DNA of 64,000 bases from Patescibacteria group bacterium. Lineage in GTDB: Bacteria > Patescibacteriota > Minisyncoccia > Phycocordibacterales > UBA2100. Below are positions 12,479-28,123 of the stretch, piece after piece. The notes beneath the pieces were generated by a model that ran no database searches, was not told the DNA's origin, and was given only the letters and a program-made list of their open reading frames with translations. Each line of letters opens with the position of its first letter. The stretch's first letter is position 1. Where the stretch lies: positions 7,669-71,668 of the forward strand of contig JBBTSD010000006.1 in assembly GCA_038064835.1 (NCBI GenBank), written 5' to 3'. A program made the position numbers and the translations under genes.

Positions 12479-14050
12479 ATGCTTTCGCGTGGCGGCGTGC
12501 TTTTGGTGATAACCACCTTTTTATTTCCTTTCTCAGTTACGGCTGTCGAGCCGATGCTTGAATGTATTCAAATTCAATCAAATGGCACTGTTCAGAAAAT
12601 TGAACGGGCGCTCACAGCAAATCCCGGACCACAGACATTTACCATAGAGTTGCGAGCTGGTGCAACCGAGCTCGTGAAAGCTTTGCAGATTAGCAGTTTG
12701 GTAACCAGCGAAGAGATACGCGTTCGAGGAGCCAGGCTTCAGATTGTATCGGAATGTGGCTTACAGGGAGGCTCGGTGGGATCGGTAACTATCTGTGTTG
12801 ATGTACCCGCAGGGCGAGGGCCGGTTTGTGGTGTAAAAATCCCTAAAGACAAAGCTGAGACACTTGCGACGGTCGCGGCTGCTGCGTCAGGACCGAATCC
12901 TGCAGATGCCATGCGGCGACTTTCCGGGGGGACGGCAAGTTCGTTGGCCGAACGAATCCGTACGATGGACCCACGGCTTCTTTCGACATTTCGATTTCCA
13001 CCTGAGATTCGGACTTTACTCGAACAATCCGGACTTCCAATAGAGCACATACCTACCCTTGAGCAAGAGCTTCGGCGGAATCCTCGCAAATTAAGCGACC
13101 TGCTTTCAGCGATTGCTGCGGGCAATACTACGGCTGTTCGTCGCGAAACTGATTCTTTGCGCGCAACGGTGAGTAATCGAAGTTGGGGGACGATCACGAT
13201 AAATTCCCGGGCTTTGGCTGAAGGTATGGTGCGTCTGTATGCGCCAGACCCAGGGAGACTTGAGAATGTACTACCACAAGTGGTGCGCACCGCTATCGCG
13301 GCACCTGTGGTGGACGCAGAAGTTAGTGGTTTTATATGCGGTGTCACTGCACCTTGTGCGGCTGATGTGGTTGGTAGAGTTACGGGGTTTGATCCACCAC
13401 CTTTACCAGATGATGCTGCGCGAAGGCTGCTTGCTCGTACTGGTGTGGCCTTGCCGGTCAATCCAGACGCCGTGCAGCCAGCGGCGCCTCCAAGTCTCGT
13501 CTCTGTATCGCCTCCGCCTTTGACGAGAGAATCTGCACCTACGGCAGGAGATATTGTAGGGCGCACTGCAGGTACGCCATCGTTTTCAGAAGCAAATCCG
13601 TTTCGCTCAATTTTTTCTGGACTGGGCTCGCTCACGCAAACAAATTATAGTGGTATTGGGTCTTCAGGACTCAGTGGTCTGTTTTCTTCGCTTTTTGCTC
13701 GGATAAACCCGGTGCCTCTCGTTGCATCAGCCCCTATGCCATCTGCAGTAATTTCACCACCACTTCCGCCGTCTATAGCCCTTTTTTCGCGACCAAGAGG
13801 AAGTGTTACGCGAGGTTCGCGCGTCGTAGTCACCTGGGCTGCGGCCGGGGTAAGTACCACAGAGCCTTGCGTCTTGTCTGAGGCGACTCGAGGTGACACG
13901 CTCCTTGCTCGTGGAAATTCTGGGTCATTCGCACTTGTTGTACCGCAAGACGCTATCACCGCGTTAGTCCCAGTCATCCGTTGCACTCCCGCGGACTCTC
14001 GCGTATCGTCTAAGGACGCTGAAAAATCAATAATCATCCGCATTCAATAA
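12479..14050 (+). CDS. Secreted hypothetical protein (523 aa), Pro/Ser/Ala-rich low complexity in the C-terminal half
   Basis: N-terminal signal-peptide-like LLVITTFLFPFSVTAVEP. Long open frame in a high-GC stretch, which lowers coding confidence. Confidence 0.45.
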   Translation: MLSRGGVLLVITTFLFPFSVTAVEPMLECIQIQSNGTVQKIERALTANPGPQTFTIELRAGATELVKALQISSLVTSEEIRVRGARLQIVSECGLQGGSVGSVTICVDVPAGRGPVCGVKIPKDKAETLATVAAAASGPNPADAMRRLSGGTASSLAERIRTMDPRLLSTFRFPPEIRTLLEQSGLPIEHIPTLEQELRRNPRKLSDLLSAIAAGNTTAVRRETDSLRATVSNRSWGTITINSRALAEGMVRLYAPDPGRLENVLPQVVRTAIAAPVVDAEVSGFICGVTAPCAADVVGRVTGFDPPPLPDDAARRLLARTGVALPVNPDAVQPAAPPSLVSVSPPPLTRESAPTAGDIVGRTAGTPSFSEANPFRSIFSGLGSLTQTNYSGIGSSGLSGLFSSLFARINPVPLVASAPMPSAVISPPLPPSIALFSRPRGSVTRGSRVVVTWAAAGVSTTEPCVLSEATRGDTLLARGNSGSFALVVPQDAITALVPVIRCTPADSRVSSKDAEKSIIIRIQ

Positions 14051-14052
14051 CT

Positions 14053-14334
14053 ATGAGTTTCACACGGACAATTGAAGACTTCACCTGTGCGCAGTGTGGT
14101 CTGCTAGTGCTTGGCGACGGCTACACGAATCACTGCACTGCATGTTTATGGAGCAAGCATGTAGATGTCGAACCTGGAGACCGAGCTGCGACATGTGGCG
14201 GCATGATGAAGCCGATTGCGGGCATCCGAAAAGGAGATTTGTGGGTAGTTCGCCAGAAATGTGAGCAATGCGGCCATGAACGAGAGAACCGCCTTTCCGC
14301 GCGGGATAGTTTTGGAGTGCTCGTGATGTTGTAG
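14053..14334 (+). CDS. Small zinc-ribbon protein, probable RNHCP-domain family
   Basis: CAQCG...YTNHCTACLWSKHVD...CEQCG gives two CxxC pairs plus an NHC motif resembling the RNHCP signature. Confidence 0.45.
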   Translation: MSFTRTIEDFTCAQCGLLVLGDGYTNHCTACLWSKHVDVEPGDRAATCGGMMKPIAGIRKGDLWVVRQKCEQCGHERENRLSARDSFGVLVML

Positions 14335-14389
14335 GATATTGCAAACCAGTGCGACCGTGGTATAATTTTTTTAGAAAAAGGAAAGGGAG

Positions 14390-14848
14390 ATGCCAATGTT
14401 GGATTTGGCTCGCATCGACTACATCGTGCTTACGAAATATGTTGAACCAACCGTTTGGCTAGTGGAAAAACAACGAGGGATCACACGATTTGGATTGGCC
14501 CGCGCCGCCCTGGCTGCCGCCACACTTTCAATTCTGATGTCCTTGTATGTGTCGGAAAATCACTCGTTCCTCTCGCTACTCTTGCTTGCGGCACTATGGT
14601 ACTTTAATGACCTCAGTCTTGATGCGCAAGAAATTGCCGATGCGGCAAAAGGGCATCCATACAACGAGTGGCGAGAACGCTGGGGTGTGCGTATCCTCGG
14701 CGCCGTTTTGATGCCAGGTGCGATTATCGCGCTTTCAGTGATTCGACCAGTCCCCGTGGGTGCAATCGAAGCGCTCTTTCTCATAGGAGCGCTCGTAATT
14801 TTCATGGGGTATCAATACATCATTTCATGTAACCCTCCGCCCTACTGA
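14390..14848 (+). CDS. Small integral membrane protein (paralog of the convergent gene 14901-15455)
   Basis: Four predicted TM segments. The C-terminal motif GYQYIISCNPPPY is shared with the paralog (SQYLMACNRMPPRY). Confidence 0.5.
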   Translation: MPMLDLARIDYIVLTKYVEPTVWLVEKQRGITRFGLARAALAAATLSILMSLYVSENHSFLSLLLLAALWYFNDLSLDAQEIADAAKGHPYNEWRERWGVRILGAVLMPGAIIALSVIRPVPVGAIEALFLIGALVIFMGYQYIISCNPPPY

Positions 14849-14855
14849 TATGAGA

Positions 14856-14886
14856 AGACCCTGCAATGCAGGGTCTTGTTTTTTTA
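14856..14886 (+). terminator. Intrinsic terminator between convergent paralogous membrane-protein genes
   Basis: agaccctgca-at-tgcagggtct followed by tgttttttt. Confidence 0.7.
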
Positions 14887-14900
14887 CGACAGTCCAATCT

Positions 14901-15455
14901 TCATCGGGGAACGCGAATTGGCATTTGCGTGAGCGATTCGCGGGGACTCGGGTGGTATCGTGGCGGCATCCGATTGCACGCCATGAGATACTGCGATGCC
15001 ACAAAGAACGCGAGCATTAGGCTTATCACTACCAAATTGAAAACACGATCAGGGTCGGCACTTGAGACCAACCACAACAGTCGGACCACTGTACCCATAG
15101 CAATAATCGCTGTTGTAGAGCGGATAACTGCCGGCTTTGGTTCTTGGAGTGGATTGACCGTGCCAGTTTTGCCAAGTGATTGCTCAACTACCCGCAGAAA
15201 ACGGTCTTCCAAAAATCCTACGAACGGACAAAATGCGACCCCAATCCATGCAATAGGCATAGCCAGCAAGGCGGTTTTCCCCAAAAGAACAGTAGCGCAT
15301 AGCCACACAAGGCTTGTGCACAAGCGCCCAAGAGCATACGAGTTCCAACCGCTATGGTACTCGAGGCGCCAGGCAAGTGGCTCTACTTTGCCAAGTATCC
15401 ATCGGTCGAGTGCAACGACACTTTCCATGAGAGGCTCCCACGCACTGTACTGCAA
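14901..15455 (-). CDS. Integral membrane protein (paralog of 14390-14848)
   Basis: TM-rich with the shared C-terminal QY(I/L)xxCNxxPP(R)Y motif. Preferred over the overlapping + strand ORF 14866-16134, whose first ~230 aa have no coding features. Confidence 0.5.
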   Translation of the reverse strand: MQYSAWEPLMESVVALDRWILGKVEPLAWRLEYHSGWNSYALGRLCTSLVWLCATVLLGKTALLAMPIAWIGVAFCPFVGFLEDRFLRVVEQSLGKTGTVNPLQEPKPAVIRSTTAIIAMGTVVRLLWLVSSADPDRVFNLVVISLMLAFFVASQYLMACNRMPPRYHPSPRESLTQMPIRVPR

Positions 15456-15552
15456 CTATAATACAACAAATATTCTGATTGTAAATAGTTTCGGAGTCTG
15501 TCACACCTGGGGATTTTGCATCGCGTCGATTTTTCTCGTGTATCATGGGTAT

Positions 15553-16134
15553 ATGGAAAAGCGAAAAATTTTCGTTCTGTTGGGAAACCCTGACAAAGAG
15601 TCTTTTACTGCATCACTCGCTCAAACATACGAAGATGCCGCTAAGGGCGCAGGGCACGAAATTAGGCGTATGAATATTGGTGACATGCAATTCGATCCCG
15701 TTTTGCAAAAAGGGTACAAAGAAATCCAAGAGCTTGAAGGACATTTAAAGGAGATGCAGGAGAATATCCGGTGGGCCGAGCACTTCGTAGTGGTATATCC
15801 AAATTGGTGGTGTTCCATGCCGGCAAAACTCAAGGGAATGTTTGACCGCGCATGGCTTCCTGGATTTGCCTTTAATTTCGACAAAGAGACACATGAGGTC
15901 ATTCAGCGTCTCAAAGGAAAGACGGCTCGAGTTATTGTGGTTGCTGGCACACAGAGTCCTTTTATGACCTGGTGGAAGTATGGCGACTTCACTAATGAGA
16001 TTTCACGAGGCATCCTCGGTTTTGCCGGATTCGATGTTGCTGTAACGACTTTTGGGCCTGCAGATTGCTGTCAGCCGTGCGACCGTGATGGCTGGGTAGC
16101 TTGCACCAAGTCACTTGGCGCGGCAGCTTCCTAA
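15553..16134 (+). CDS. Flavodoxin-like fold NAD(P)H:quinone oxidoreductase family protein (Flavodoxin_2; KefF/MdaB/YwrO-like)
   Basis: MEKRKIFVLLGNPDKESFTASLAQTYEDAAKGAGHEIRRMNIGDMQFDPVL and HFVVVYPNWWCSMPAKLKGMFDRAW match the family. Start chosen at the in-frame ATG 15553 inside the long ORF-track frame. Confidence 0.7.
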   Translation: MEKRKIFVLLGNPDKESFTASLAQTYEDAAKGAGHEIRRMNIGDMQFDPVLQKGYKEIQELEGHLKEMQENIRWAEHFVVVYPNWWCSMPAKLKGMFDRAWLPGFAFNFDKETHEVIQRLKGKTARVIVVAGTQSPFMTWWKYGDFTNEISRGILGFAGFDVAVTTFGPADCCQPCDRDGWVACTKSLGAAAS

Positions 16135-16211: not shown

Positions 16212-17765
16212 ATGTCCGTGCCAGAAGTGGTCATAATCGAGCTTGGTTCCCAGTACACGCTACTTATCCAGCGCTCCTTGCGCGAACTTGGTGTTCGTTC
16301 GGTCGTTTTTGACCCTGTGGGTGCCCAAAAATGGCTGGGTAAGCATATACCCAGTGCCGTAATTCTTTCTGGGGGGGCCGCAAGTGTTTGTGATAAGGAC
16401 GCACCGCAACCTCCTAAAAGCATCTTGTCGCTCAAGCGGATTGATGGTAGGCCAGTGCCAATCCTCGGCATTTGCTACGGAATGCAGTGGTTGGCGCAAA
16501 AGCTTGGTGGGGAAGTACACTCATCGTTGGGGCATAAGGAATATGGCAGTGCCAAAATTCAATTCATTGGACCATCCAACGATCCGGTGTTTGCGGGCCC
16601 ACTTGTGCAAGAAGTATGGATGAGTCATGGCGACACGGTCACGAAAGTACCACCTGGCTTTCAAGTACTTGCCGTTGGCAGGTGGTCCTCAAAAGAACGG
16701 CTATGTCCGCCTGTCATGATGACCGACGGTAGCAGGTGGGGCGTACAGTTTCATCCCGAGGTCACCCACACAGTGCACGGCAAGGAAATGTTAGAAAACT
16801 TCTTGCATAGTGCAGGGTGTAAGAAGGATTGGGTCCCTAGGTCGCTCATTGCTCAAATCCAAGACCATGCGCAGCGAGAAATTGGGAATCGTCGTGCAAT
16901 CTTCGGGTTCAGTGGCGGTGTTGATTCGACAACAATGTTGGCGATACTCGCACCCATCCTCAAAGATCGGCTACTTGCGCTCACTGTTGATGCAGGGCAA
17001 TTGCGCGAGGGTGAAGTTGAAGAGATTCGTGTCCATGCACAAGCGGTTGGCGCGACATTACGCGTCATGGATGTGCGACAAGAATTCCAAGAGGCTCTTT
17101 CTGGGGCTGTAGATGCTGAAGAAAAGCGCAATCTTTTCAAGCAGGCCTACTCACATTGCTTTGTGCGCGCTGCGAAAGAATTTGGAGCTGCAGTGGTGTT
17201 ACAAGGCACACTTGCGCCAGACCGCATTGAATCAGGTGTGACCGGTGGGGTTCTCATAAAATCACACCATAACATTGGCTTGGATATGGGGGACTTGACA
17301 CAAATTCACCCGATAGATCACTTGTTCAAATACGAGATCCGCGCACTTGCACAAGAAATTGGGCTACCGGAAAGTGTGTCGAAGCGACAGCCATTTCCGG
17401 GGCCAGGTTTGTTTGTGCGCATCATCGGAGTTCCCGCGACTCTTGAAAAACTTGCCGTGGTGCGCTGGGCAGATGCTCGCGTCCGCGAGATACTCATCCG
17501 GCACGGAAAGTATAATCAGTTGTCGCAGCTGGTGGTTGCCTATGTTGGGGTAAACACCGTTGGCGTAAAGGGGGATGCCCGAGTTTACGGGGGTGCTATC
17601 GTTGTGAGGGCTGTTGATACGGTCGACTTTATGACCGCAGAGGGGGTCCATTTCTCAGATGAGGTTGAGAAGGATATTTCCAGCGAACTCACTCGCCATC
17701 CAGATATTGTCCGTGTGTGGTACGACCCAACAAAAAAGCCACCGGCGACAACTGAGCTGGAGTGA
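16212..17765 (+). CDS. guaA: GMP synthase (glutamine-hydrolysing)
   Basis: N-terminal class I glutamine amidotransferase (ICYGMQWL...H) then ATP-pyrophosphatase P-loop FSGGVDSTT and a C-terminal dimerisation domain. Confidence 0.9.
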   Translation: MSVPEVVIIELGSQYTLLIQRSLRELGVRSVVFDPVGAQKWLGKHIPSAVILSGGAASVCDKDAPQPPKSILSLKRIDGRPVPILGICYGMQWLAQKLGGEVHSSLGHKEYGSAKIQFIGPSNDPVFAGPLVQEVWMSHGDTVTKVPPGFQVLAVGRWSSKERLCPPVMMTDGSRWGVQFHPEVTHTVHGKEMLENFLHSAGCKKDWVPRSLIAQIQDHAQREIGNRRAIFGFSGGVDSTTMLAILAPILKDRLLALTVDAGQLREGEVEEIRVHAQAVGATLRVMDVRQEFQEALSGAVDAEEKRNLFKQAYSHCFVRAAKEFGAAVVLQGTLAPDRIESGVTGGVLIKSHHNIGLDMGDLTQIHPIDHLFKYEIRALAQEIGLPESVSKRQPFPGPGLFVRIIGVPATLEKLAVVRWADARVREILIRHGKYNQLSQLVVAYVGVNTVGVKGDARVYGGAIVVRAVDTVDFMTAEGVHFSDEVEKDISSELTRHPDIVRVWYDPTKKPPATTELE

Positions 17766-17775
17766 CTAACGATTT

Positions 17776-17810
17776 TCGCGCCTTGTGTCTTAACACGAGG
17801 CGCGTTTTCT
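17776..17810 (+). terminator. Probable terminator after guaA
   Basis: cgcgcc...ggcgcg stem followed by ttttcttgttt. Confidence 0.45.
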
Positions 17811-17870: not shown

Positions 17871-19067
17871 ATGCTGGATTCTCAGGGACATCTTGTGACT
17901 GGAGCAACAGGCTTTATTGGGAGGCATCTTGTCAGAGAGCTGTTGGCGCGCAATGAGCGCGTGTGGATTTTGGTGCGCTCCACCACAACCCAGACGGCAC
18001 ATGATCGGGCACGCGCTGTTTTTAGCACAGCGTTAGATTCTGGATTTTTGATTGTTTTGGAAGGTGATATTGTCAAACCTGACATGGGTCTTGATGGAAA
18101 AAGTCTTGCCGAGCTTTCCAAAGAAAAAATCACACTGTGGCACTTGGCTGCAGATCTATCGTTTTCACCAAAAAAAAGTGCCGTGGCGGAGCGCACGAAT
18201 CGAGAGGGAACCGCGCAAGTTGTTACTTTTGCCAATCGTTACGCCACTCGTCTTATACACATGAGTACGGCCTATGTCTGCGGGGATACGACAAGGCTTT
18301 TTACAGAAAGCGATTTTGATGTGGGCCAGCGATTTCGTAATCACTACGAGCGGTCAAAATTTGCCGCAGAGAAAATAGTGCAGGATCAGTGCGTTGTGCC
18401 TCATCTCATTTTCCGCCCCTCTATCGTGATTGGCGATGCCTACGAGGGTAAAGCAGAGGGGTGTACATTTGGATATTATCGCTTCGCGTTCATGTTACAT
18501 GTCTTTCAGGTATGGCTTTTGACAACACTAAACCGAGGCTCCGTAGGTGCGTTGGTTTTGCGTACACTCGGTACGCGTACTTCATCCAAAGACGATGTGG
18601 TACGAGCACCTTGGCTTCTGGTGCCCTATCCTACAGACGGTTTTGTCGATATGGTGCCGATCGATTATGTGGTCCAGTCTCTTATCCAGACGATGTTGCG
18701 GGCAGAGGCATGGCGCCTAAAAACATTTCATTTGACACAAAGGACTCCTCTTGAATCGCGCGTGGTGATGGATCAAACGATGCAAGACATGGGCATTACG
18801 GGAGTGCATTATCTACAGGTGCCCTCGTGGGTTTTTTTCTCTCTGGTACAGATTCTCTATACAATTTTATGGCCACTACGACCTTACACAAAATCGGTTC
18901 TCTGGTATTTGCCCTATGTTGCGCGACCGTATCATTTTGACCATGCACATATGGACGCACTGGGATTACCTGCTCCTTCTCAGCTATCTCGCGGGTTTCT
19001 ACAACGAATTAATCGTCATGCGAAAGATACGGTTTTCTCAACAATCAGTCTCGATAAGCTTTTTTGA
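17871..19067 (+). CDS. NAD(P)-binding thioester-reductase / fatty-acyl-CoA-reductase-like SDR (NAD_binding_4 family)
   Basis: VTGATGFIGRHLVRELL Rossmann motif, then GDIVKPDMGLDGKSLAELSKEKITLWHLAADLSF, typical of the male-sterility / thioester-reductase family. Extended C-terminus. Confidence 0.6.
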   Translation: MLDSQGHLVTGATGFIGRHLVRELLARNERVWILVRSTTTQTAHDRARAVFSTALDSGFLIVLEGDIVKPDMGLDGKSLAELSKEKITLWHLAADLSFSPKKSAVAERTNREGTAQVVTFANRYATRLIHMSTAYVCGDTTRLFTESDFDVGQRFRNHYERSKFAAEKIVQDQCVVPHLIFRPSIVIGDAYEGKAEGCTFGYYRFAFMLHVFQVWLLTTLNRGSVGALVLRTLGTRTSSKDDVVRAPWLLVPYPTDGFVDMVPIDYVVQSLIQTMLRAEAWRLKTFHLTQRTPLESRVVMDQTMQDMGITGVHYLQVPSWVFFSLVQILYTILWPLRPYTKSVLWYLPYVARPYHFDHAHMDALGLPAPSQLSRGFLQRINRHAKDTVFSTISLDKLF

Positions 19068-19070
19068 TGT

Positions 19071-19838
19071 ATGTATACCATCTCATTAGACAAAATGCGA
19101 AGCAGTAACAAAGATCGTGCGGGAGCCAAAGGAGCGACACTGGGCGAAATAATATCTCTCGGGCTACCTGTTCCGCCGGGATTTGTGGTGACTACCGAAG
19201 TGTGGGAAGAATGGCGTGAAGGTGGTGTCAGTGCTGAAGTGGCGCACGCTATCGAAACAGCAAGCGATCTTCTCAAAACCGAGCGATTTGCCGTGCGATC
19301 GAGCGCGACCGTTGAAGACGGATCTGACTCTGCATGGGCAGGACAATTTCGTACATTTCTTGATGTCGATCAGGAACATCTTGTTGCAAAAGTTTGTGAG
19401 TGCATGGCATCCGCACTACTACCTGGTGCGCGTGCCTATGGAGAGCAGAAGAGTGTTCGTGCCGAGAATGTCCCGGTCGCAGTAGTGGTGCAAGCCATGA
19501 TTCACCCCGCAACGGCAGGAGTCGCATTTTCGATGAATCCGGTCACCGGCAATCGTGACCAAGCACTTATCGAAGCGGTGAGCGGGTTGGGTCTAGGTGT
19601 CGTTGATGGGACACAGACACCGGATACATATATTTTTTCCAAACTAGATAGGTCGGTAGTGTCTATCCAATCGGGTGTGGACTCTTCACCGGGGGTTCTA
19701 CAAGGAGCACACGCGCAAGATATTTTGCAACATGTGCTTACACTCGAAGCGCATTTTGGTTGTCCGCAAGATATGGAATGGGCGTATGCGCACGAAGTGT
19801 GTTGGGTACTTCAAAGTCGACCTGTAACAACTCTTTAG
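19071..19838 (+). CDS. PEP-synthase/PPDK N-terminal nucleotide-binding (PPDK_N) domain protein; N-terminal half of a split PEP-utilising phosphotransferase
   Basis: DRAGAKGATLGEIISLGLPVPPGFVVTTEVWEEW matches the start of the PEP synthase/PPDK and rifampin-phosphotransferase ATP-grasp-like domain. The protein is only 255 aa. Confidence 0.65.
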   Translation: MYTISLDKMRSSNKDRAGAKGATLGEIISLGLPVPPGFVVTTEVWEEWREGGVSAEVAHAIETASDLLKTERFAVRSSATVEDGSDSAWAGQFRTFLDVDQEHLVAKVCECMASALLPGARAYGEQKSVRAENVPVAVVVQAMIHPATAGVAFSMNPVTGNRDQALIEAVSGLGLGVVDGTQTPDTYIFSKLDRSVVSIQSGVDSSPGVLQGAHAQDILQHVLTLEAHFGCPQDMEWAYAHEVCWVLQSRPVTTL

Positions 19839-19841
19839 TCT

Positions 19842-20735
19842 ATGCAAAGATTTCTTTTGTACATCAACGAACGCTTCTCTCCTGTCCAGCTTGTACCCCT
19901 CGCGGTGTTGTTTGGTTGTGCGATTGGTACTCTAGGGCCTACCCTTGCGGGGGTACCAATTGAGAGTTATAGGATCGTCGCGATTATTAGTGCGCTTTTT
20001 CTTTTTTTATTTCGGCTACGAGTCTTGGACGACATTAAAGATCATGGACACGACAGTGTGCACCATCGTGACCGCCCGGGCGCGCGCGGTATTATCGGGC
20101 AACGCGAGCTTGCTTGGACGGCAGGTGCGACAATCGTGCTCGAGGCCGTCATTGCCTATTTGTTTGGCCTCGTGCCTTTTATCGCCTTCCTTGTGATGAG
20201 TGTGTATGCTGGTGTTTTGTTTATAGAAGCTCTTGCTCGTGACCGAATACGGGATTTTTTTACACCGTACATTGTCCTTCATGAACTTTTGCTAGTACCT
20301 TTACTTGTCTATCTGTGTCTACTGGCGGCCGTGCCGATTGTTGCACTCGCCACATTTCCCCTTCTAGCGCTACTCGCTTTTCTCGGCGCCCTCTTTTTTG
20401 CGATCGAGGTTGCGCGTAAACTACGCGCACCGCAAGAAGAGGGGACTGGGAAGGATACTTACACGGCGCAGTACGGGGTACGAGGTGCCACGCTACTATT
20501 GTGTAGTACGGTCTTTGTTGCCTATGGTGCAATGGCCATAATTGCCTCTCAAACTACGCAAAAATCTGTAATTGCGTACCTACTGGGATTTCTTGTCTTT
20601 TTTGCGCTTTGTTATAACGCATTTTATTTTGCCTCTGTTCCAGTGCCAAGAAATGCCCGAGTATTGTTTGTAACTACTGTCGGATCTGTCGCCTTCTTTC
20701 TTGCGCTGTTACCCGGTATGCTATGGCTCTTATGA
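19842..20735 (+). CDS. UbiA-family polyprenyltransferase-like integral membrane protein
   Basis: About 8 TM segments and an Asp-rich motif LDDIKDHGHD (DxxDxxxD) after TM2, as in UbiA-superfamily prenyltransferases. Confidence 0.55.
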   Translation: MQRFLLYINERFSPVQLVPLAVLFGCAIGTLGPTLAGVPIESYRIVAIISALFLFLFRLRVLDDIKDHGHDSVHHRDRPGARGIIGQRELAWTAGATIVLEAVIAYLFGLVPFIAFLVMSVYAGVLFIEALARDRIRDFFTPYIVLHELLLVPLLVYLCLLAAVPIVALATFPLLALLAFLGALFFAIEVARKLRAPQEEGTGKDTYTAQYGVRGATLLLCSTVFVAYGAMAIIASQTTQKSVIAYLLGFLVFFALCYNAFYFASVPVPRNARVLFVTTVGSVAFFLALLPGMLWLL

Positions 20736-22486
20736 TCGAGTCTAAGACTGCAGTGCGCATATACGATAATTCAAATCTCGCTGAAAGTTATGCTGGGGCG
20801 GTCGCACCACTCACGACCTCGTTTGCCAACAGCCTGTATGAAGGAGTGTATCGCCACTTTACAAGTTTTATGGGCGTCAGCACTGCAGATCAGCATCGGC
20901 ATGAAGCTATGTTTTCTCAGATGGTTGTGAGTATTGGTTATCATTTGTACTACGATCTACAAAACTGGTATACCCTGGTTTCATTGCTCCCTGGATACGC
21001 ATACAACAAATCCTTTTTTGAACATATGTTGGGAATTCCTCCAGGAGCAGGCGTAGTCGTTCCAAGTCACGCAAAAAGAAAGAAAGTGCGGAAAGCGCTT
21101 TCCTCGACGCGACTGGTAGTGCAACTTGCAAAAATTGCCCTTGTTTTTTGTGCCATGCCGATTCTCGTCGCGCGCTTTAATCGGCGCTTCGATCAAGTTT
21201 TTAAACAATTGAGTGGAATGAAATTAGCTGAATTGGATTATAAAGAACTATGCAACCACTACCAGAACATGCGCAGAGATTTAGTGCGCCTGTGGCGTGT
21301 ACCCATCGCAAATGACTTTGCAGTAATGGTGAGTACAGGGATCGCTCGTTCGCTTTACAAAAAATGGGCGCTCGATGATGAGTTTGTAACGCGACTGACT
21401 CTCCTGTCGCGGGCCAGTCTCTCAACTCTTGATCCAGGTCGTCTTTTGGTCAAGATGAAAAAACAAAGCGCGACTGATGCGACTATTTCGGCGCTCTTGG
21501 AGAGTCAGACAACAGCGAAAGAAGTCTATAAACGCTTGTGTCGTGAACATGCGGATACGGTGTGTGTAAAAAGTATCATTGCATACATAGCCCAATACGG
21601 TAGCCGTGTTCCAAACGAACTGAAGCTTGAAGCTGCCACATTACACGAGGAGCCAGAGCATATTGTCACCATGCTTCGCGCAATAGGAAATACCGACAGT
21701 GATCTTTTTCAAAACCGGGTTGCGGGTGGGGTTGGGTATGTGCCGTTGCGCATACCTGTGCAAGGGTTTTGGAAACAAAAGTTGCTGGCGTGGATGCTTG
21801 GTTGGGCTAGAGCCTCTATCCGTCGTCGAGAAGAAACACGATTACGGCGCACACAAATTTTTGGACATGCGCGTCAGGTTTTTCTAGCAACGGGGCAGCA
21901 TTTAATGAATGAGGGGATCATTGCATCAACAGCAGATGTGATGTTCCTTACGGCTCAAGAATTGTGCGCCGCGGACGCCACTTTCTTGTGGCGCACCCGT
22001 ATCGACGAGCGAAAAAAGAACATGTCTCGATGGGAGCAAATTTCGATGCCGACACGCATAGAGTCTGCAGATTCAATTCAGGAAATTGAGAAGAAAATTT
22101 TCTCGACTAGTGTCGCATCTGTATCAGCAACAACACCGCACCTCCTTCGTGGCGTTGTTGCTTCGCGGGCAGGGCGTACGACTGTTAGCGGTAAGGTGCT
22201 GGTTCTGCGCGAATTCGATCATAACGCAGACTTTCGCGATCGGATTTTGGTAACACGACATACCGATCCTGGGTGGACAGTGGTGTTTCCTTTGGTACGC
22301 GCCATCGTTGTCGAACGCGGAGGTATTCTTTCACACGCCTCCATTGTGGCGCGTGAGATGGGCATTCCGTGCCTCATAGGTGTGTCTACAGCAACCACGG
22401 ATATTCCGCAGAATGCAGAGATTGATATTAACCTTATCGATGGCCTTCTTTCTATTAGGGATGCTTCAAGGGTAACCATCACATAA
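20723..22486 (+). CDS. PEP-utilising enzyme mobile (His swivel) domain protein with a large alpha-helical central domain; C-terminal half of the split phosphotransferase, with rifampin-phosphotransferase-like architecture
   Basis: The C-terminus ...TDPGWTVVFPLVRAIVVERGGILSHASIVAREMGIPCLIGV is the PEP-utilizers swivel domain with the catalytic His. Confidence 0.65.
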   Translation: MALMIESKTAVRIYDNSNLAESYAGAVAPLTTSFANSLYEGVYRHFTSFMGVSTADQHRHEAMFSQMVVSIGYHLYYDLQNWYTLVSLLPGYAYNKSFFEHMLGIPPGAGVVVPSHAKRKKVRKALSSTRLVVQLAKIALVFCAMPILVARFNRRFDQVFKQLSGMKLAELDYKELCNHYQNMRRDLVRLWRVPIANDFAVMVSTGIARSLYKKWALDDEFVTRLTLLSRASLSTLDPGRLLVKMKKQSATDATISALLESQTTAKEVYKRLCREHADTVCVKSIIAYIAQYGSRVPNELKLEAATLHEEPEHIVTMLRAIGNTDSDLFQNRVAGGVGYVPLRIPVQGFWKQKLLAWMLGWARASIRRREETRLRRTQIFGHARQVFLATGQHLMNEGIIASTADVMFLTAQELCAADATFLWRTRIDERKKNMSRWEQISMPTRIESADSIQEIEKKIFSTSVASVSATTPHLLRGVVASRAGRTTVSGKVLVLREFDHNADFRDRILVTRHTDPGWTVVFPLVRAIVVERGGILSHASIVAREMGIPCLIGVSTATTDIPQNAEIDINLIDGLLSIRDASRVTIT

Positions 22487-22488: not shown

Positions 22489-23088
22489 ATGAGAATTCCC
22501 TTACTGGTGTATCCACTTGCTTTGACCGGCTTAGCCTTCAGCCTTTCAGTGACGGCAATTTTTACTGTGGTGCGTGGTCATTTTTTTCTTTCATTTGGGT
22601 TTTTGCTTCTGGCATTTACCTGCGATGTATTGGATGGTTTTCTCGCACGGAGACTTACTGTCGTATCGGTGTTTGGCCGCGTGGCAGACAGTGTCGCAGA
22701 TGTTCCATTATATTTGATTTACCCCGTGTGCGTGATACTGACTATGTACGGCTTTAGCGCAGTCGCATTAGTCGGGTCGGTTATTTTTGTATGTGCAGGG
22801 ATATTTCGGCTCATTAGATTTTCTTACAAAGGATTTATAGGTCATGACGGCACATTTATGTACCAAGGGCTTCCCGTATTCGCCTCACTGCCGTGCATGG
22901 GCATGCTCTTGGCGAGCTATGGATACGCACTGCAGCCGTCTGGTTTTGTAGTTCAATTTGTCGGCGTGTGCGTAAGTCTTCTGATGGTAAGTACTATTCC
23001 TGTACCAAAACCCACCCATCCAACCCAGATTGCGGTGATTGTTAGTGTAGCCTTCAGTGGAGGTCTGATACTCTTATGGATTGGTTAG
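22489..23088 (+). CDS. CDP-alcohol phosphatidyltransferase family protein
   Basis: The signature D-x2-DG-x2-AR-x8-G-x3-D-x3-D appears as CDVLDGFLARRLTVVSVFGRVADSVAD. Multi-TM. Confidence 0.8.
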   Translation: MRIPLLVYPLALTGLAFSLSVTAIFTVVRGHFFLSFGFLLLAFTCDVLDGFLARRLTVVSVFGRVADSVADVPLYLIYPVCVILTMYGFSAVALVGSVIFVCAGIFRLIRFSYKGFIGHDGTFMYQGLPVFASLPCMGMLLASYGYALQPSGFVVQFVGVCVSLLMVSTIPVPKPTHPTQIAVIVSVAFSGGLILLWIG

Positions 23089-24074
23089 CGTATCTTGACG
23101 AGCAACGCCACACCGCTCAGTACGAAAGTCTGTTGTTACGCACTTACAATGATCACCCTGCGTTTGGTCATGCGCGGCTATCCTCTTTCCGACGCTTTCT
23201 TTCTTTGGAAAACCCTGCGCGAGAGTTTGTTAGGTGGAAAAATGTACTGGTAGTGCGCGCAGACGCAATTCACGCTCACGCCTGCATTTCTGTCGATTCG
23301 CGAGACACCGGCGTTGCTCATGTGGGTTTTGTAGACTTTGATTCCGGGCAATCGTGCGAGCGTCTCTTTGAAGCAATTGACATTGCTGCTCGCGACTTAG
23401 GAGCCCACACACTTCGCGGACCAATCAACTTCAATTCCTGGCAAGAATTTCGGTGTATTACACGCGACTCTGGAGCCCCGCCTTTTTTCCTTGAACCGGC
23501 TTTACATGAAAGAAGCGAAATTTGGCGCGGGCATGGATTCATGCCAAAAGTTTCCTACCTTTCTCTTGGGCAAAGTGTTCAGCAGGCGCCTTTTGGAGAC
23601 AGGGAGACACCGGGTATAACCATCGAGCGACTTACCCCAAGCATGGCATTTCAAGCTGTTCCTGGGCTTCATTCGGTGGCGCTGGACGCGTTCGGAAGTA
23701 CCTGGGATTTTATCCCCATCTCGTTGGCAGAATTTTCGTATCTCTACCAACCTGCTCTTGCGCAGAGTGGTACCTTTCTGATTCTTGTTGCTCGAGACGA
23801 GCAACAGAAGATTGTGGGTTTTTTTGTCGGAGCGCCTGATGTATACGACAAGGGACAAAAAACACTGGTACTGAAATCAGTAGCAGTTCTTCGTAGTCAC
23901 AAACGGCAAGGAGTCGGCACCGCACTTTTCTTGGCTGTGCACCGCTTTGCTCTCGCACAAGGGTTTGATCGCTATATTTACTCTACAATGCAGGATGAAA
24001 ATATGGCTATACAGAATCTGGTGGGAGCTGGTGAATTTATACGCGCGTACGAAGTGGGTGAGAAAGCACTATGA
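23076..24074 (+). CDS. GNAT-fold acyltransferase family protein (possibly double GNAT)
   Basis: C-terminal LVLKSVAVLRSHKRQGVGTALFLAVHRFALAQGFDRYIY matches the acetyl-CoA-binding motif (Q/R-x-x-G-x-G/A). Confidence 0.5.
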   Translation: MDWLAYLDEQRHTAQYESLLLRTYNDHPAFGHARLSSFRRFLSLENPAREFVRWKNVLVVRADAIHAHACISVDSRDTGVAHVGFVDFDSGQSCERLFEAIDIAARDLGAHTLRGPINFNSWQEFRCITRDSGAPPFFLEPALHERSEIWRGHGFMPKVSYLSLGQSVQQAPFGDRETPGITIERLTPSMAFQAVPGLHSVALDAFGSTWDFIPISLAEFSYLYQPALAQSGTFLILVARDEQQKIVGFFVGAPDVYDKGQKTLVLKSVAVLRSHKRQGVGTALFLAVHRFALAQGFDRYIYSTMQDENMAIQNLVGAGEFIRAYEVGEKAL

Positions 24075-24739
24075 TTTTTGACATAGCGATTATCCTGGCA
24101 GTGTATGGCGGTATTGTCTGTGTTACCGAGATTTTAGGGCGACATGGTGTACTCATACTACTTACCCGAAAGTATGCGCACGCACTTTCCGGCGTTGCGG
24201 CGGCGCTTCTCCCGTTTGCAGTCGAAAAAAATAGTGCGCTGGCATGTGGCATTGTTGGTGCAATTATCTTAGGATTTCTTGTACTGAAAGGATATCTGCC
24301 AGCAATTGGATCTCACGGCGTCTTTGATGTGGGCGTTGTTATGTTTCCGTTAGGGTTATCGCTCTGCGCCTTCTTGTTTTGGAGCGACACCAATTTTCTT
24401 GCCTATCAGTATGCCGCTCTCATGCTGGGATTACCCGATGCGGTAGCTGGTATCGTGGGAACGCGGTATGGGGGGAACTTTTTCAAACGCTACAGTACGA
24501 AATCATTTGAAGGAAGCGCCGCTTTTTTTGCCACGGCTTTTTTTCTCTCCATCTTCTTTCTTACTACCGGAGTGGGAATTTCTTTAGGCATTGCGGTCGC
24601 TTATGCGGCGCTTGCAGGGCTAATTCTTGCTGTCATTGAGGGGGTGTCCCGATGGGGGACAGACAACCTCACTGTGCCGCTTGCCGCAGGTACTCTCGTC
24701 TTTTCATTGTTAAAAACTTTTGTAACCGTAGTGTTGTAG
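24071..24739 (+). CDS. CTP-dependent lipid cytidylyltransferase/kinase family membrane protein (CdsA / dolichol-kinase / phytol-kinase-like)
   Basis: 222 aa, TM-rich. The C-terminal DAVAGIVGTRYGGNFFKRYSTKSFEGSAAFF resembles the CdsA signature (K-R-x4-K-[DS]-x-G). Confidence 0.5.
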   Translation: MIFDIAIILAVYGGIVCVTEILGRHGVLILLTRKYAHALSGVAAALLPFAVEKNSALACGIVGAIILGFLVLKGYLPAIGSHGVFDVGVVMFPLGLSLCAFLFWSDTNFLAYQYAALMLGLPDAVAGIVGTRYGGNFFKRYSTKSFEGSAAFFATAFFLSIFFLTTGVGISLGIAVAYAALAGLILAVIEGVSRWGTDNLTVPLAAGTLVFSLLKTFVTVVL

Positions 24740-25258
24740 AAAAATATTGACCGCACTATGCGCTAAAATTCCGGCGCAAAAAAACAGGAGCAATTGCTGG
24801 ACAGGTGGGTGCTCAATAAAATAAATTGCAACAGTTGCCACAAGCACGGAATCAATGTGATCTACACCCAAGAAAAAGAAGCCCAAAAGCCCGCTACCTC
24901 GCCCGCTTTCGGGAATTCCGATTCGTCGTTTCAGAAAACTGTTTGGGAGCTCCCCAAGCATATATACTGCGCCAACAAGAAACCCAGTTAAAACAAAATA
25001 AATTCCTGGGCCAGTGGCAAAAAGTGCACAGAAAGGCGTGAAAACTGCAGATAAGAAAGCAACTGACAGTACGCCGCGAATAGTTTTGCGAGATCCAAAA
25101 ATTGAACTAGACCCAATTTTCCACCCAGCATCAATAGGTATTGTAAATGTAGAAAAAAGGTTGTTGGGTATAATTAGGACTTGATGTACTAGGTTAGCTA
25201 AAAAAAGAGGAATGCCATACACGACAAGTATTTCCATAGGCGTAGTATATATCCACAA
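24710..25258 (-). CDS. CarS-like / DUF46 family protein (CDP-archaeol synthase-like CTP transferase)
   Basis: IPLFLANLVHQVLI...PIDAGWKIGSSSIFGSRKTIRGVLSVAF...LGELPNSFLKRRIGIP...HSAVNIFLQHYGY aligns block by block with archaeal CarS as recalled from memory (PIDGG...GDGKTIRG...SFIKRR). Confidence 0.55.
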   Translation of the reverse strand: MWIYTTPMEILVVYGIPLFLANLVHQVLIIPNNLFSTFTIPIDAGWKIGSSSIFGSRKTIRGVLSVAFLSAVFTPFCALFATGPGIYFVLTGFLVGAVYMLGELPNSFLKRRIGIPESGRGSGLLGFFFLGVDHIDSVLVATVAIYFIEHPPVQQLLLFFCAGILAHSAVNIFLQHYGYKSF

Positions 25259-25308: not shown

Positions 25309-26358
25309 ATGGACCGTATCATGGAGATTTTGCGTGCGGGGCCACCTATTTTAGCCGACAAAACTCTCACTGGTGGCGGGCTCCTTATGGTAGCAATCGT
25401 GGTTTTGGCGACCGCTATTTTTTTACTGATTTTTGCGCATCACGAAAAAAATTGGTTCAAGCATTACTTGGCGATCGCTGTTGGAGTGTTTATTTTTGAA
25501 ATTTTCACCTCACCTATGTGGATAAATAACCATTTAGGAGAGTTTGGCTACGCCTACCAAGATGTCAGCTGGGTACTTACCCTTGGTTGGTCTACGCTTA
25601 TGCTCAGTATTGTATTTGCCGTCGATTATGTCTGGGGTCACCTGCATGCCTGGAAGAGGTTCCTTGGCTACATCGCAGGCATGAGCGTATTTGGCTTTTT
25701 GGCTGAAATGTTGGTGATGAATCTTGGACTGCGTAGCTATTCACCTGAAATAGCACAGGCAATTTCCGGTCTGTATTTTGTAAACACTCCCGTCGATGCG
25801 CTCTATTACATTCCCGTCTTTAGCGCACTTGTCCTCGGCCTGTACAAGTACTGGACGCTCATCATAGACAATCGCGCTGTTGTGCCGATGCGTGGCGGTT
25901 GGGGACGGAGGTTTGCGCTCACTGCCATCGCAGTGTTTCTTTTCGAATTTATGATTGAACCCATGGTAATAAATACGAATTTTCCTGCGTGGTCATACAT
26001 TTTCCACGACATTTCAATCCTACTCACTTTTGGCTGGACTGCCCTGGTGTGGTTCTCAATCTATGTCGTCGAAGCGCTGTGGCCCAATTTTGACCTTAAG
26101 GAGAAATTTTTTCTGTATCTTGGCGTTATAGGTATTTTTGCACTGCCATTCGAAACTTACCTTCTTACGGCAGGGTATCGCATTTACGAAGGTACCTCAG
26201 CCGGTGATGCCTTTAGTGGCATCTTTTTACCATTACTACACACGCCGATTGAAGTCGCGATGGCGATACCACTTTACTTTGCGCTGGTACTGGGATTCAT
26301 TGGTGCTTGGGACATCATGCTGGTCAACCCGCTTATAAGGAGACAAAAAACCCTCTAG
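25309..26358 (+). CDS. Integral membrane protein built from two homologous halves (internal tandem duplication)
   Basis: FEIFTSPMWINNHLGEFGYAYQDVSWVLTLGWSTLMLSIVFAVDYVWGHL in the first half parallels FEFMIEPMVINTNFPAWSYIFHDISILLTFGWTALVWFSIYVVEALWPNF in the second. Confidence 0.5.
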   Translation: MDRIMEILRAGPPILADKTLTGGGLLMVAIVVLATAIFLLIFAHHEKNWFKHYLAIAVGVFIFEIFTSPMWINNHLGEFGYAYQDVSWVLTLGWSTLMLSIVFAVDYVWGHLHAWKRFLGYIAGMSVFGFLAEMLVMNLGLRSYSPEIAQAISGLYFVNTPVDALYYIPVFSALVLGLYKYWTLIIDNRAVVPMRGGWGRRFALTAIAVFLFEFMIEPMVINTNFPAWSYIFHDISILLTFGWTALVWFSIYVVEALWPNFDLKEKFFLYLGVIGIFALPFETYLLTAGYRIYEGTSAGDAFSGIFLPLLHTPIEVAMAIPLYFALVLGFIGAWDIMLVNPLIRRQKTL

Positions 26359-26361: not shown

Positions 26362-26775
26362 ATGCACAGAGCACTAAAATGGCTGGTAATTTTAGGACTT
26401 GTTGCTGCTGGACTTGCGATGGCTATGCCATTTATAGCTGGCTTTTTGATGGAAATTTTATGCGGTGGTGTAGTCGCAATTGTTGGGCCCGCAGCGTACA
26501 TCGGTAATTTTCTGGGCCCTGTTGCTGGCGGAGGTACTGTTGCATTTCTGGTTGGTCTAGTAATCTGGATCGGCTATCTAGTGATTAGGTATGTGCGGAA
26601 GCGCAAAAAAGATGCGACGATTATTAACACTGTTGAAAACGCGCTACACAAGAATATTGCCTATGTTAAATCTGCGCGCGCAGAGGGTATGTCTGATGTC
26701 CAGATACGCACTGTTTTCCATAATGGCGGTTGGAGTGCTGAAGAAACCGATAAGGTTTTCGCACTAGCCGCCTGA
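26362..26775 (+). CDS. Small membrane protein, hypothetical
   Basis: Three hydrophobic helices and a soluble C-terminal tail. Abuts the previous gene. Confidence 0.4.
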   Translation: MHRALKWLVILGLVAAGLAMAMPFIAGFLMEILCGGVVAIVGPAAYIGNFLGPVAGGGTVAFLVGLVIWIGYLVIRYVRKRKKDATIINTVENALHKNIAYVKSARAEGMSDVQIRTVFHNGGWSAEETDKVFALAA

Positions 26776-26782: not shown

Positions 26783-28123
26783 ATGTCGCCCCGTACACAG
26801 ATTCTCTGTTTCGGGGCATTATTTGCTTTTCCTGCACTCGGCTTTTTTTTTCTGAATCTCGTCGATGATAAGCCTCTGCCAAATAGCGACGGTAGTGCTG
26901 TCGTACAGGAGTGGCTTGGAATGTTTACTCTTCTTACGCAAAAAACTTTTGGCTTCACTCCGCCCGTTGCCGCGCGTGCTTTTGGCTATGCCGGAATCAG
27001 TCTGTATGAAAGCGTGCGCTTCGCCACGCCCGGTTCAAAAAGTCTGGCAGGACAGCTGAATGGGCTCGATGCAACTTTTCTTACGGATCTTGATAGTTCA
27101 AAAACATATAACTGGAATATTGTTGCGAACGCAAATTTGGCAACCATGGCACGAGCATTATACCCAAATGCAACCCCTGTGTACCAGAAAAAAGTTGCGA
27201 AGCTTGAGAGAGATTTGCTTGCGATCTATGCGCGCGGGGTTGATTTTCATGTTGCCGCCGACTCCATCGCGCTCGGGGTTACAATTGCAAATGCGGTGAT
27301 CGTATACGCAGAAACTGACGGACAAAGTCTGGCGTACATGAAAAATTTTCCTACAACCTATACGCTGCCAGTGGGCGATGGTATGTGGGTGCCAACTCCG
27401 CGTGCACACAAAGGCGCGCTTCAGCCCAAATGGGGAGATGTCAGGCCATTTTTGCTAAAAAATGTCTCAGAAACCATGCCTCCACCTCCACCTACATACT
27501 CCACAAACCCACTATCTCCATTCTTTCTTGAAGTACAAGAAGTTTATGATGTTGGAAAAAATCTGACCATTGAACAGCGTGCCATTGCTGAATTTTGGAA
27601 CGATGAACCCATGAAAACACCAACACCACCTGGTCACTCAGTTGCGCTATTGCGGCAAGTGCTTGATGAACAGGATGCGACACTTCACACTGCGGCGATT
27701 GCGTTTGCAAAAATAGGTATTGGTCTGCATGACTCTTTCGTCGCTTGCTGGCGGGCAAAATATACCTACAACCTAATCAGACCCATTACTGTCATTCGGG
27801 AGCACATTGATTCGTCGTTCGATATCCCTTTGGACACGCCACCGTTTCCGGAATATCCATCGGGGCACTCTGTGCAATCCGCCGCATCGGCTCGGATTCT
27901 CTCTAATCTTTTCGGCGAGAAGTATCATTTTGTCGACAGAACGCATAATGGGCGCACGGATATGCATGCGGACACTCGCACATTCGCTTCCTTTGACGCC
28001 TTCGCTCGTGAAGCAGCTGAAAGCCGGCTTTATGGCGGTATTCATTTCCGTTCGGCCATAGAACGCGGCTTGGAACAAGGAAGGCTCATAGGAGAAAATG
28101 TGAACAAGTTGGTATTCCAATAG
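26783..28123 (+). CDS. Secreted PAP2-superfamily protein, vanadium-haloperoxidase / acid-phosphatase-like
   Basis: Signal peptide. PAP2 motifs KYTYNLIRP (K-x6-RP), YPSGHS (PSGH) and SRLYGGIHFRSA (SR-x5-H). Confidence 0.65.
   Translation: MSPRTQILCFGALFAFPALGFFFLNLVDDKPLPNSDGSAVVQEWLGMFTLLTQKTFGFTPPVAARAFGYAGISLYESVRFATPGSKSLAGQLNGLDATFLTDLDSSKTYNWNIVANANLATMARALYPNATPVYQKKVAKLERDLLAIYARGVDFHVAADSIALGVTIANAVIVYAETDGQSLAYMKNFPTTYTLPVGDGMWVPTPRAHKGALQPKWGDVRPFLLKNVSETMPPPPPTYSTNPLSPFFLEVQEVYDVGKNLTIEQRAIAEFWNDEPMKTPTPPGHSVALLRQVLDEQDATLHTAAIAFAKIGIGLHDSFVACWRAKYTYNLIRPITVIREHIDSSFDIPLDTPPFPEYPSGHSVQSAASARILSNLFGEKYHFVDRTHNGRTDMHADTRTFASFDAFAREAAESRLYGGIHFRSAIERGLEQGRLIGENVNKLVFQ

Follow-up and report, generated by a model that had tools for sequence, protein, structure and literature searches.

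Why should a phosphotransferase of the rifampin phosphotransferase (RPH, or Rph) and phosphoenolpyruvate (PEP) synthase superfamily be encoded by two genes with a membrane protein gene between them, and what might such an enzyme phosphorylate? The question is raised by a 64,000-nucleotide stretch of DNA (positions 7,669 to 71,668 of contig JBBTSD010000006.1, hereafter the window), which derives from a metagenome-assembled genome (MAG) of Patescibacteria, the Candidate Phyla Radiation (CPR), from Hainich groundwater. Three co-directional open reading frames (ORFs) on the plus strand are involved. The first (19071-19838, 255 aa) encodes a stand-alone PPDK_N ATP-grasp protein (Pfam PPDK_N, 8e-57), the second (19842-20735, 297 aa) an integral membrane protein of predicted UbiA fold that resembles digeranylgeranylglyceryl phosphate (DGGGP) synthase (PRK13592, 2e-14), and the third (20723-22486, 587 aa) Rph-type helical and phospho-histidine swivel domains (PEP-utilizers, 3e-20). 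These coordinates agree with a preliminary description of the locus, made from the letters of the window, in which the 255-aa and 587-aa ORFs were given as separate genes with the UbiA-like gene exactly between them. We judge with moderate confidence that the two outer ORFs, here termed the N-half and the C-half, are the two subunits of one functional dikinase of the Rph/PEP-synthase superfamily that would act in a lipid pathway.

The two kinase genes

The three genes are closely packed, in keeping with translational coupling. The ATG of the N-half lies 3 nt after the TGA stop of the preceding reductase gene, the spacer between the N-half and the UbiA-like gene is 3 nt, and the UbiA-like gene overlaps the C-half by 13 nt, in agreement with the 3-bp and 13-bp junctions reported before. 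The C-half has an alternative in-frame second ATG at 20732, and with that start the overlap with the UbiA-like gene is a 4-nt ATGA.

The domain assignments of both ORFs in the preliminary description proved sound. The 255-aa ORF belongs to PPDK_N and not to an unrelated family; its matches in the PDB are PEP synthases and residues 113-316 of RPH-Lm. Residue conservation in homologues shows K20, R76, E82, D83, Q141, E236, Q248 and R250 to be near-invariant, and the conserved set thus includes the Lys, Arg, Glu and Gln of the type that bind ATP and Mg (K20, R76, E236, Q248 and R250). In the C-half, the PEP-utilizers domain (PF00391) spans residues 506-569, precomputed annotation gives a match to Rph_4th (PF27448), and residues 11-578 align to positions 321-889 of the 898 in the NCBIfam profile NF004881. 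The histidine H538, in ERGGILSHASIVARE, is invariant across 57 sequences and lies in the GGxLSHAxIVARE motif of the swivel domain. An AlphaFold (AF2) model of the C-half built from these 57 sequences has a predicted local distance difference test score (pLDDT) of 88, and its top Foldseek matches are to RPH-Lm (PDB IDs: 5fbu, 5fbt and 5hv1; E 4e-19, ~610 columns, TMq 0.66), with which it shares ~19% identity.

Judged by profile scores and domain content, the kinase is neither an RPH equivalog nor a PEP synthase. It is not the former because the two halves score 140 and 88 bits against RIF_Ptrans_rph (NF041857), for which the cutoff is 999; for NF000283 the scores are 98 and 57 bits compared to a cutoff of 1700. 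It is not the latter because the PEP_utilizers_C TIM barrel (PF02896) is lacking: a Pfam search found no match to it in either half or in the fused homologues, and the halves are also below the NCBIfam PEP_synth cutoffs. A fused homologue scores 286 bits against RedH, 270 against PigC and 268 against Rph, all far below the cutoffs of 1300-1350. Rifamycin is almost certainly not the substrate. The rule that Rph and PEP-synthase dikinases carry all their domains on one polypeptide does not extend to this locus, where the domains are spread over two ORFs, and fused relatives exist.

To see whether the halves make up a whole enzyme, they were concatenated and aligned with nine fused homologues using MAFFT. 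The N-half ends in ...LQSRPVTTL, the last ATP-grasp motif, at the RP(I/V)TTL of the fused proteins, and the C-half starts ~10 residues ahead of their conserved DNSN(L/I)AESY motif, with no segment missing at the junction. The two halves therefore tile one protein, as had been supposed, and the earlier remark that frameshift remnants are absent is borne out as well. Additionally, the shortness of the N-half, which is without the helical insert of PPDK_N, is common to the fused relatives.

The split is also widespread. Homologous split genes are seen in dozens of loci, and split C-halves of ~560-590 aa make up more than 80 protein clusters at 36-56% identity. The nearest non-identical relatives are ~50-56% identical, a range in which synonymous sites are saturated, and selection was judged by residue conservation. 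Searching with the substrate domain only, at E<=1e-30, gave 582 representative clusters, and of the best 150 of these ~30 look split (550-600 aa, with a match from near residue 1), the others being fused at 800-950 aa. The true split forms, mostly from Patescibacteria, all fall into a single clade of a neighbour-joining C-domain tree, and the nearest neighbours of this clade are fused enzymes from a Daviesbacteria MAG of the CPR and from Bdellovibrio-like bacteria. Two apparent splits were discounted: the locus L144, considered as an independent split within the fused clade, has an ORF cut by the contig end, and L025 (801 aa), which had been flagged as split, is probably fused with a divergent N-domain. 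The fission is kept in Patescibacteria and a few other lineages. By these sequence comparisons the gene was split once, long ago, at the linker between the domains, and selection appears to have maintained the split. The native split proposed in the preliminary description thus stands, as the catalytic residues are kept and the split is conserved down to 36% identity in one clade.

Stand-alone PPDK_N proteins abound in Patescibacteria. Besides the 255-290-aa partners of the split Rph system there is a distinct and very abundant second family, of ~311-330 aa (hits P0119-P0233).

Two further explanations of the two ORFs have to be weighed. They could be fragments of a single Rph/PEP-synthase gene, pseudogenised or mis-assembled, with an unrelated membrane gene inserted, and it is true that the N-half is short (255 aa compared to ~315 in RPH) and that the middle gene has no Pfam match. 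However, the fused relatives have the same short N-domain, and the middle gene is a member of a UbiA subfamily that is itself conserved. Identical genes in the identical arrangement occur on 8 independent contigs from several samples, which together with the exact tiling, the conserved catalytic residues in both halves and the conservation of the split over one clade led us to reject this explanation as extremely improbable. A housekeeping PEP synthase or pyruvate phosphate dikinase (PPDK), or a rifamycin-resistance phosphotransferase, that was split by happenstance would agree with the database names of the proteins ("pyruvate, water dikinase" and "rifampicin phosphotransferase") and with RPH-Lm being the top structural match. 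We consider this very unlikely, given the missing TIM barrel, the RIF_Ptrans_rph scores and identity to RPH-Lm quoted above, and the fact that across phyla the gene lies strictly within a lipid operon, which is described next.

The UbiA-fold protein and the conserved cluster

We surveyed 104 non-redundant related loci (numbered with L) from GTDB genomes and JGI metagenomes. The GTDB scan was dominated by the generic SHAAIVARE motif and most of its 80 loci are unrelated PEP-utilizers; the metagenome scan used the substrate domain only. In 58 of 79 loci the gene immediately before Rph is a UbiA gene, and among the loci with a fused kinase this is so in 35 of 45. Because the adjacency holds with the fused forms included, the predicted functional link between the UbiA protein and the kinase is robust, and the coupling of the two that was noted at first is well founded. 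The position of the UbiA gene between the halves is another matter. The order N-half, UbiA, C-half was seen only in the window, in L090 (49% identity), in the fragment L134 and in L014, a Lloydbacteria MAG in which the N-half is on the opposite strand. In other split loci the N-half is 2-4 kb downstream of the C-half, and the genes are ordered either as UbiA, C-half, CDP-OH transferase, GNAT-like, K222, CarS (minus strand), N-half and M349, or as C-half, K222, FAR, N-half, DUF3419, formyltransferase, ligase and UbiA (K222 and M349 being membrane proteins, and FAR a fatty-acyl reductase, that are described below). Of the arrangement that was to be sought in homologues, then, the split itself recurs, within one clade, and the interposition does not: it is a lineage-specific local variant of gene order and carries no special information.

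The middle protein has no Pfam match of its own, including to UbiA (PF01040) at the gathering score, and the PRK13592 match given above is to an NCBIfam prenyltransferase. Most of its homologues at 30-45% identity do carry PF01040, for instance that of L020 (41 bits compared to a cutoff of 34.2). When a profile of the UbiA-like family was compared to the PDB, the best match was DGGGP synthase (DGGGPS; PDB ID: 6m31), an O-alkylating enzyme, at 9e-6, followed by chlorophyll synthase. The AF2 model of the middle protein (pLDDT 90) matches the UbiA fold of about 9 transmembrane helices, with top Foldseek matches to DGGGPS (PDB IDs: 7bpu; 6m31), ApUbiA (4od4), a mycobacterial membrane phosphoribosyltransferase (8j8j) and AfUbiA (4tq4). 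The resemblance to DGGGP synthase is one of family only, as the homologue in L150 scores just 24-26 bits against PRK12882 and PRK12883, the DGGGP synthase profiles, for which the cutoffs are 296-353. The first Asp-rich motif is canonical (D63-D64-IK-D67-HGH-D71...R78P79..R82G83) and conserved in 19 sequences. The second (DxxxD) is replaced by an invariant E189xxR192K193xR195...E200...D205, which aligns to the EIVKDFEDMEGD motif of DGGGPS, and this replacement suggests non-canonical chemistry. The name "prenyltransferase" is best read as a predicted fold assignment only: where the preliminary description spoke of a membrane prenyltransferase, the model and the Foldseek matches uphold the UbiA fold, and with ExxRKxR...E in place of the second motif the prenyltransferase activity is putative.

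The same cluster is found well outside the CPR, in Acidobacteriota, the cultured Microcoleus sp. FACHB-1515 (L020), Gammaproteobacteria, Gemmatimonadota, Salinivenus and Bdellovibrio-like bacteria. The order there comprises seven genes, for an HMG-CoA-reductase (HMGR)-like protein, UbiA, a fused Rph-like kinase, DUF3419 (BtaA family), a ~445-aa protein with K222 as its N-terminal half, a GNAT-like protein and a fatty-acid CoA ligase (closest to PRK09274, 5e-105). CPR versions have an NAD_binding_4 reductase (FAR/AcrB-like) in the slot of the HMGR-like gene. Over the 104 loci, HMGR-like genes occur in 32 and FAR genes in 22, never both; similarly, DUF3419 occurs in 42 and the CDP-OH transferase in 22, never both, and each of the 11 loci with a CarS-like gene also has the CDP-OH transferase. 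Of the 59 loci with >=5 kb of downstream sequence, 52 have K222. This conserved context shows that the kinase belongs to a conserved, predicted lipid operon.

The HMGR-like proteins of the cluster suggest where the pathway begins. FcrA is an HMGR homologue that has been shown experimentally to be a fatty acyl-CoA reductase giving alcohols, and three substitutions are reported for its pocket, namely S684 to Glu, loss of a conserved Lys (to a small residue) and Leu862 to a bulky residue (PMC11948995). The 31 HMGR-like proteins from the cluster conserve E559, D690, K691 and D767 (numbered as in human HMGR), apart from a gap at E559 in L169 and L146. S684 is Glu in all 31, and K735 is hydrophobic (M/V/I/L/F/A) in 28 and Arg in the other three (L142, L033 and L026). 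They thus carry two of the three FcrA substitutions, the conserved Lys being lost to a hydrophobic instead of a small residue; the third is not seen, as the position of Leu862 is mostly Leu. In bacteria, many fcrA genes have no link to the synthesis of wax esters (PMC11948995). The strongest clue that the pathway would start from a fatty alcohol is that two unrelated four-electron thioester reductases fill one and the same slot. Literature searches, which did not cover all subscription journals, turned up no account of this cluster, and the UbiA and HMGR neighbourhoods described in the Lipocone paper differ from it. The pathway around the split kinase thus appears to be uncharacterised.

Other genes of the operon and the window

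The operon lies among housekeeping genes of the window (ATP synthase, guaA, tRNA synthetases and a mur/ftsW cluster). The guaA gene ends at 17765, the next gene starts at 17871, and the lipid operon is bounded on its upstream side by a strong terminator-like hairpin after guaA (17777-17804, plus strand; 12-bp stem with 8 GC pairs, T-tail). Transcription therefore probably starts with the reductase gene at 17871 and would run through seven tightly packed genes to 24739. The search for internal promoters by consensus was uninformative, with fewer sites than in shuffled sequences.

The first gene (17871-19067, plus strand, 398 aa) encodes a fatty-acyl (thioester) reductase of the FAR/AcrB-like type with an NAD_binding_4 domain (PF07993, 1e-39). 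It matches PRK07201 at 1e-48, in the N-terminal domain only and below the full-length cutoff, and Thioester-redct (TIGR01746) at 1e-31. Downstream of the C-half is a CDP-alcohol phosphatidyltransferase (22489-23088, plus strand, 199 aa; CDP-OH_P_transf, 3e-14) that is nearest to archaetidylserine and phosphatidylserine synthases, with NCBIfam matches to archae_ser_T (4e-18, the best) and pssA (4e-15), both below cutoff. It is followed by a GNAT-like acyltransferase with an N-terminal extension of ~220 aa (23076-24074, plus strand, 332 aa; Acetyltransf_1 1e-9, residues 221-313), a gene that is conserved in both the CPR-type and the seven-gene-type clusters.

The last gene of the unit encodes K222 (24071-24739, plus strand, 222 aa), a membrane protein placed in the CTP_transf_1 superfamily by phmmer homology to PF01148 proteins (L007). 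It has the motifs TRKxxH, LxDxxAGxxGxxYG, K(T/S)xEGS and GxDNLx(I/V)P, and is a candidate CTP-dependent lipid-alcohol kinase or cytidylyltransferase. The ~445-aa proteins of the seven-gene clusters that contain K222 (for example L150 12837-14180, L020 12831-14204 and similar) have an additional C-terminal membrane domain of ~220 aa, for which Pfam searches at E<=5 found no relatives; comparison of this domain by hhalign to the CarS, CDP-OH transferase, M349, UbiA and K222 families gave probabilities <2% throughout. At the same Pfam threshold there was no match for K222, M349 or a 447-aa protein of this K222-containing type. A different fusion is found in L016, a Gammaproteobacteria MAG, where 12825-14516 encodes K222 fused to a UbiA domain (563 aa) and no separate UbiA gene precedes the kinase gene.

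Convergent with the operon is a gene on the minus strand (24710-25258, 182 aa) for a CarS-like cytidylyltransferase of the CDP-archaeol-synthase family (PF01864, 28.4 bits compared to a cutoff of 22, 2e-6), which also matches PRK04032 (NF003114) at 2.7e-12, with 46.9 bits compared to a cutoff of 148. Next comes M349 (25309-26358, plus strand, 349 aa), a multi-pass membrane protein that is conserved in about 20 split-type loci and has an internal duplication (FEIFTSPMWINN... and FEFMIEPMVINT...). In 19 of the CPR-type lipid loci there is a radical SAM/SPASM protein of ~385 aa, usually just upstream of M349 (for example L100 9781-10932 and L117 6569-7804), which might modify lipid chains. A small membrane protein (26362-26775, plus strand, 137 aa) is a weakly conserved neighbour, with a homologue in L090 (2e-27) and a sub-threshold match to DUF7327. 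The PAP2/VCPO-type phosphatase-like protein that follows (26783-28123, plus strand, 446 aa; Pfam PAP2, 1.8e-9) is possibly a lipid-phosphate phosphatase; its gene is adjacent in the window and in L001 and L003, and was not scored as a recurrent partner elsewhere, so that its membership of the system is uncertain.

Several features elsewhere in the window were also noted. The leucyl-tRNA synthetase (31521-34364, plus strand, 947 aa) has a NUDIX domain (PF00293, 8e-15, residues 388-505) inserted directly after the editing domain. The 422-aa ORF at 14866-16134 (plus strand) is an over-extension: the genes called on the source contig are one for a 193-aa Flavodoxin_2/FMN_red protein, at the 3' end of this ORF, and upstream of that a 184-aa gene on the opposite strand. 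Two plus-strand ORFs, 4754-6586 (610 aa) and 12479-14050 (523 aa), have no Pfam match; of the two, one is inside the F-type ATP synthase gene cluster and the other closely follows it.

A possible lipid route and the order of its steps

If the split kinase follows the mechanism of its family, the 255-aa ATP-grasp subunit would bind ATP, and the swivel domain of the 587-aa subunit would take up the phosphoryl group there on His538 and pass it to a hydrophobic substrate bound by the large Rph-type helical domain, which this subunit also contains. The preliminary description had taken the substrate to be the prenylated product of the UbiA-like enzyme. That is possible, but the genes conserved around the kinase, for a fatty-acyl reductase, a fatty-acid ligase and a CTP_transf_1-like protein, point to a fatty-alcohol-derived substrate more than to a classical prenylated aromatic, and agree at least equally well with a kinase step ahead of UbiA. 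We suggest that the kinase would act on a fatty alcohol or its monophosphate.

A route can be drawn from the order of the predicted activities. An acyl-thioester reductase would provide the fatty alcohol, in this organism the FAR and in other phyla the FcrA-like HMGR homologue, usually with a FadD-like ligase. K222 and the dikinase would then phosphorylate the alcohol to an alkyl phosphate and possibly to an alkyl diphosphate, and the DGGGP-synthase-like UbiA-fold enzyme would join the alkyl group to an acceptor by an O-alkyl (ether) bond. A phospho-amino-alcohol head group would be added in this organism by the CarS-like enzyme and the archaetidylserine-synthase-like CDP-alcohol transferase, a module in whose place other lineages would use the DUF3419/BtaA-like enzyme. 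The head group would be of the amino-acid type, and the GNAT-like protein may N-acylate it.

The order of the kinase and UbiA steps could be reversed, with the UbiA enzyme making a lipid alcohol first, the dikinase phosphorylating this product, and the CarS-like enzyme converting the phosphate to a CDP-lipid for the CDP-alcohol transferase. The genes lie in just this order (UbiA, C-half, CDP-OH transferase) in the window and in the type-B loci, UbiA-Rph adjacency is the most conserved feature of the cluster, CarS-type enzymes need a lipid phosphomonoester, and it is known of the Rph family that it phosphorylates hydroxyls of bulky hydrophobic molecules. However, gene order does not give the order of reactions, and K222 is already a candidate for making the phosphomonoester. 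We favour the kinase acting before UbiA because the 42 DUF3419 loci, which are without CarS and the CDP-OH transferase, keep both Rph and K222 with no obvious user of a terminal phosphomonoester. This is an argument from parsimony, and we regard the reversed order as possible but doubtful. A second alternative is that the enzyme is an ATP-dependent ligase similar to PigC and RedH, which would phosphorylate the carbonyl (enol) oxygen of a fatty aldehyde for condensation with a nucleophile. The fused homologue mentioned above does score as well against RedH and PigC as against Rph, and NAD_binding_4/thioester-reductase domains such as that matched by TIGR01746 often stop at the aldehyde. Yet none of these scores approaches its family cutoff, no pyrrole or other obvious nucleophile-forming genes are present, and phosphate esters are what the UbiA, CarS and CDP-alcohol-transferase partners all work on. 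Since, additionally, the FcrA-type reductases that replace FAR elsewhere give alcohols (PMC11948995), we think this alternative improbable.

Several points weigh against the lipid pathway with a two-subunit kinase acting on a fatty alcohol or its monophosphate. The choice of this substrate comes only from gene context, and the residue numbers used for the HMGR-like proteins come from alignment to a human HMGR reference sequence that was entered by hand. We know of no Rph-family enzyme that phosphorylates a phosphate monoester, and canonical UbiA enzymes, with their carbocation chemistry, make poor use of saturated alkyl diphosphates. K222 is tentatively taken to be a kinase and not a cytidylyltransferase on the basis of its motifs, and the K222 family profile had no match in the PDB. 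No FadD-like ligase, DUF3419, formyltransferase or radical SAM gene was found when the 64-kb window was searched with tblastn. Finally, no PPDK_N gene was found in the ~10 kb on each side of the C-half in the split loci L098, L107, L124 and L132, where the partner can be unlinked or possibly shared.

Comparison to known systems helps to place the proposed route. RPH (RPH-Lm; PDB IDs: 5FBS, 5FBT, 5FBU and 5HV1) has the same three modules, an ATP-grasp PPDK_N, a helical substrate domain and a His swivel, though on one polypeptide, at low identity and in a resistance context instead of a lipid operon. PEP synthase and PPDK have in common with the split kinase the ATP-grasp and phospho-His swivel domains and a presumed phospho-relay, and differ in having the PEP/pyruvate TIM barrel where the split kinase has the Rph-type helical domain. 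The prodigiosin ligases PigC and RedH belong to the same superfamily and have the same domain order, and with other Rph-family small-molecule dikinases they show that the family takes hydrophobic substrates that are not antibiotics; they are, however, single-chain enzymes of condensation in pigment pathways, of which this locus has no genes. A closer parallel is the archaeal ether-phospholipid line of DGGGP synthase, CarS and archaetidylserine synthase, as the operon has look-alikes of all three consecutive enzymes. Against a simple equation of the two, none of the three look-alikes reaches its equivalog cutoff, the UbiA protein has another motif in place of the second Asp-rich one, and the cluster has no geranylgeranylglyceryl phosphate (GGGP) synthase, glycerol-1-phosphate (G1P) dehydrogenase or geranylgeranyl diphosphate (GGPP) synthase; the source of the hydrocarbon here appears to be the fatty-acyl reductase and not isoprenoid synthesis. 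A similar picture emerges for phytol salvage in plants and cyanobacteria, where VTE5 (a CTP-dependent phytol kinase) and VTE6 (a phytyl-phosphate kinase) precede a UbiA-family transferase (VTE2/ChlG). By analogy the series of steps would be the same, from a lipid alcohol through its mono- and diphosphate to transfer by a UbiA-family enzyme, and VTE5 is a CTP_transf_1-related kinase, as K222 may be. The second kinase here would be of the Rph type and unrelated to VTE6, and the alcohol probably a fatty alcohol. Fatty-alcohol-making reductases are also the entry step where FcrA or FAR feeds wax-ester or ether-lipid synthesis (PMC11948995; ElbD in myxobacteria), and the downstream enzymes here differ from those of the known wax-ester (WS/DGAT) and ether-lipid (AGPS, PlsC-like, ElbB-E) routes.

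Taken on its own, the gene fission is of modest interest, as what looks to be a clean natural example of the ATP-grasp module of a swivelling-domain enzyme being able to work in trans. More tentatively, we put forward as a possibility that the operon and its seven-gene counterpart constitute an undescribed membrane-lipid route, in which fatty acids, scavenged or endogenous, would be reduced to fatty alcohols, phosphorylated (here by the two-subunit dikinase) and transferred by the UbiA-fold enzyme. Such a route would parallel archaeal ether-lipid assembly in bacteria, without isoprenoids and with a head group of the phospho-serine or homoserine type. Patescibacteria are usually described as incapable of making membrane lipids themselves. 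If the route is real, it would define a new lipid class and its pathway, give a function to "orphan" bacterial class-I HMGR/FcrA genes that have no wax-ester link, and extend the substrate range of the Rph kinase family to membrane lipids. The CPR would then have a dedicated way to build their own membrane lipids, and the building of CPR membranes would become directly testable.

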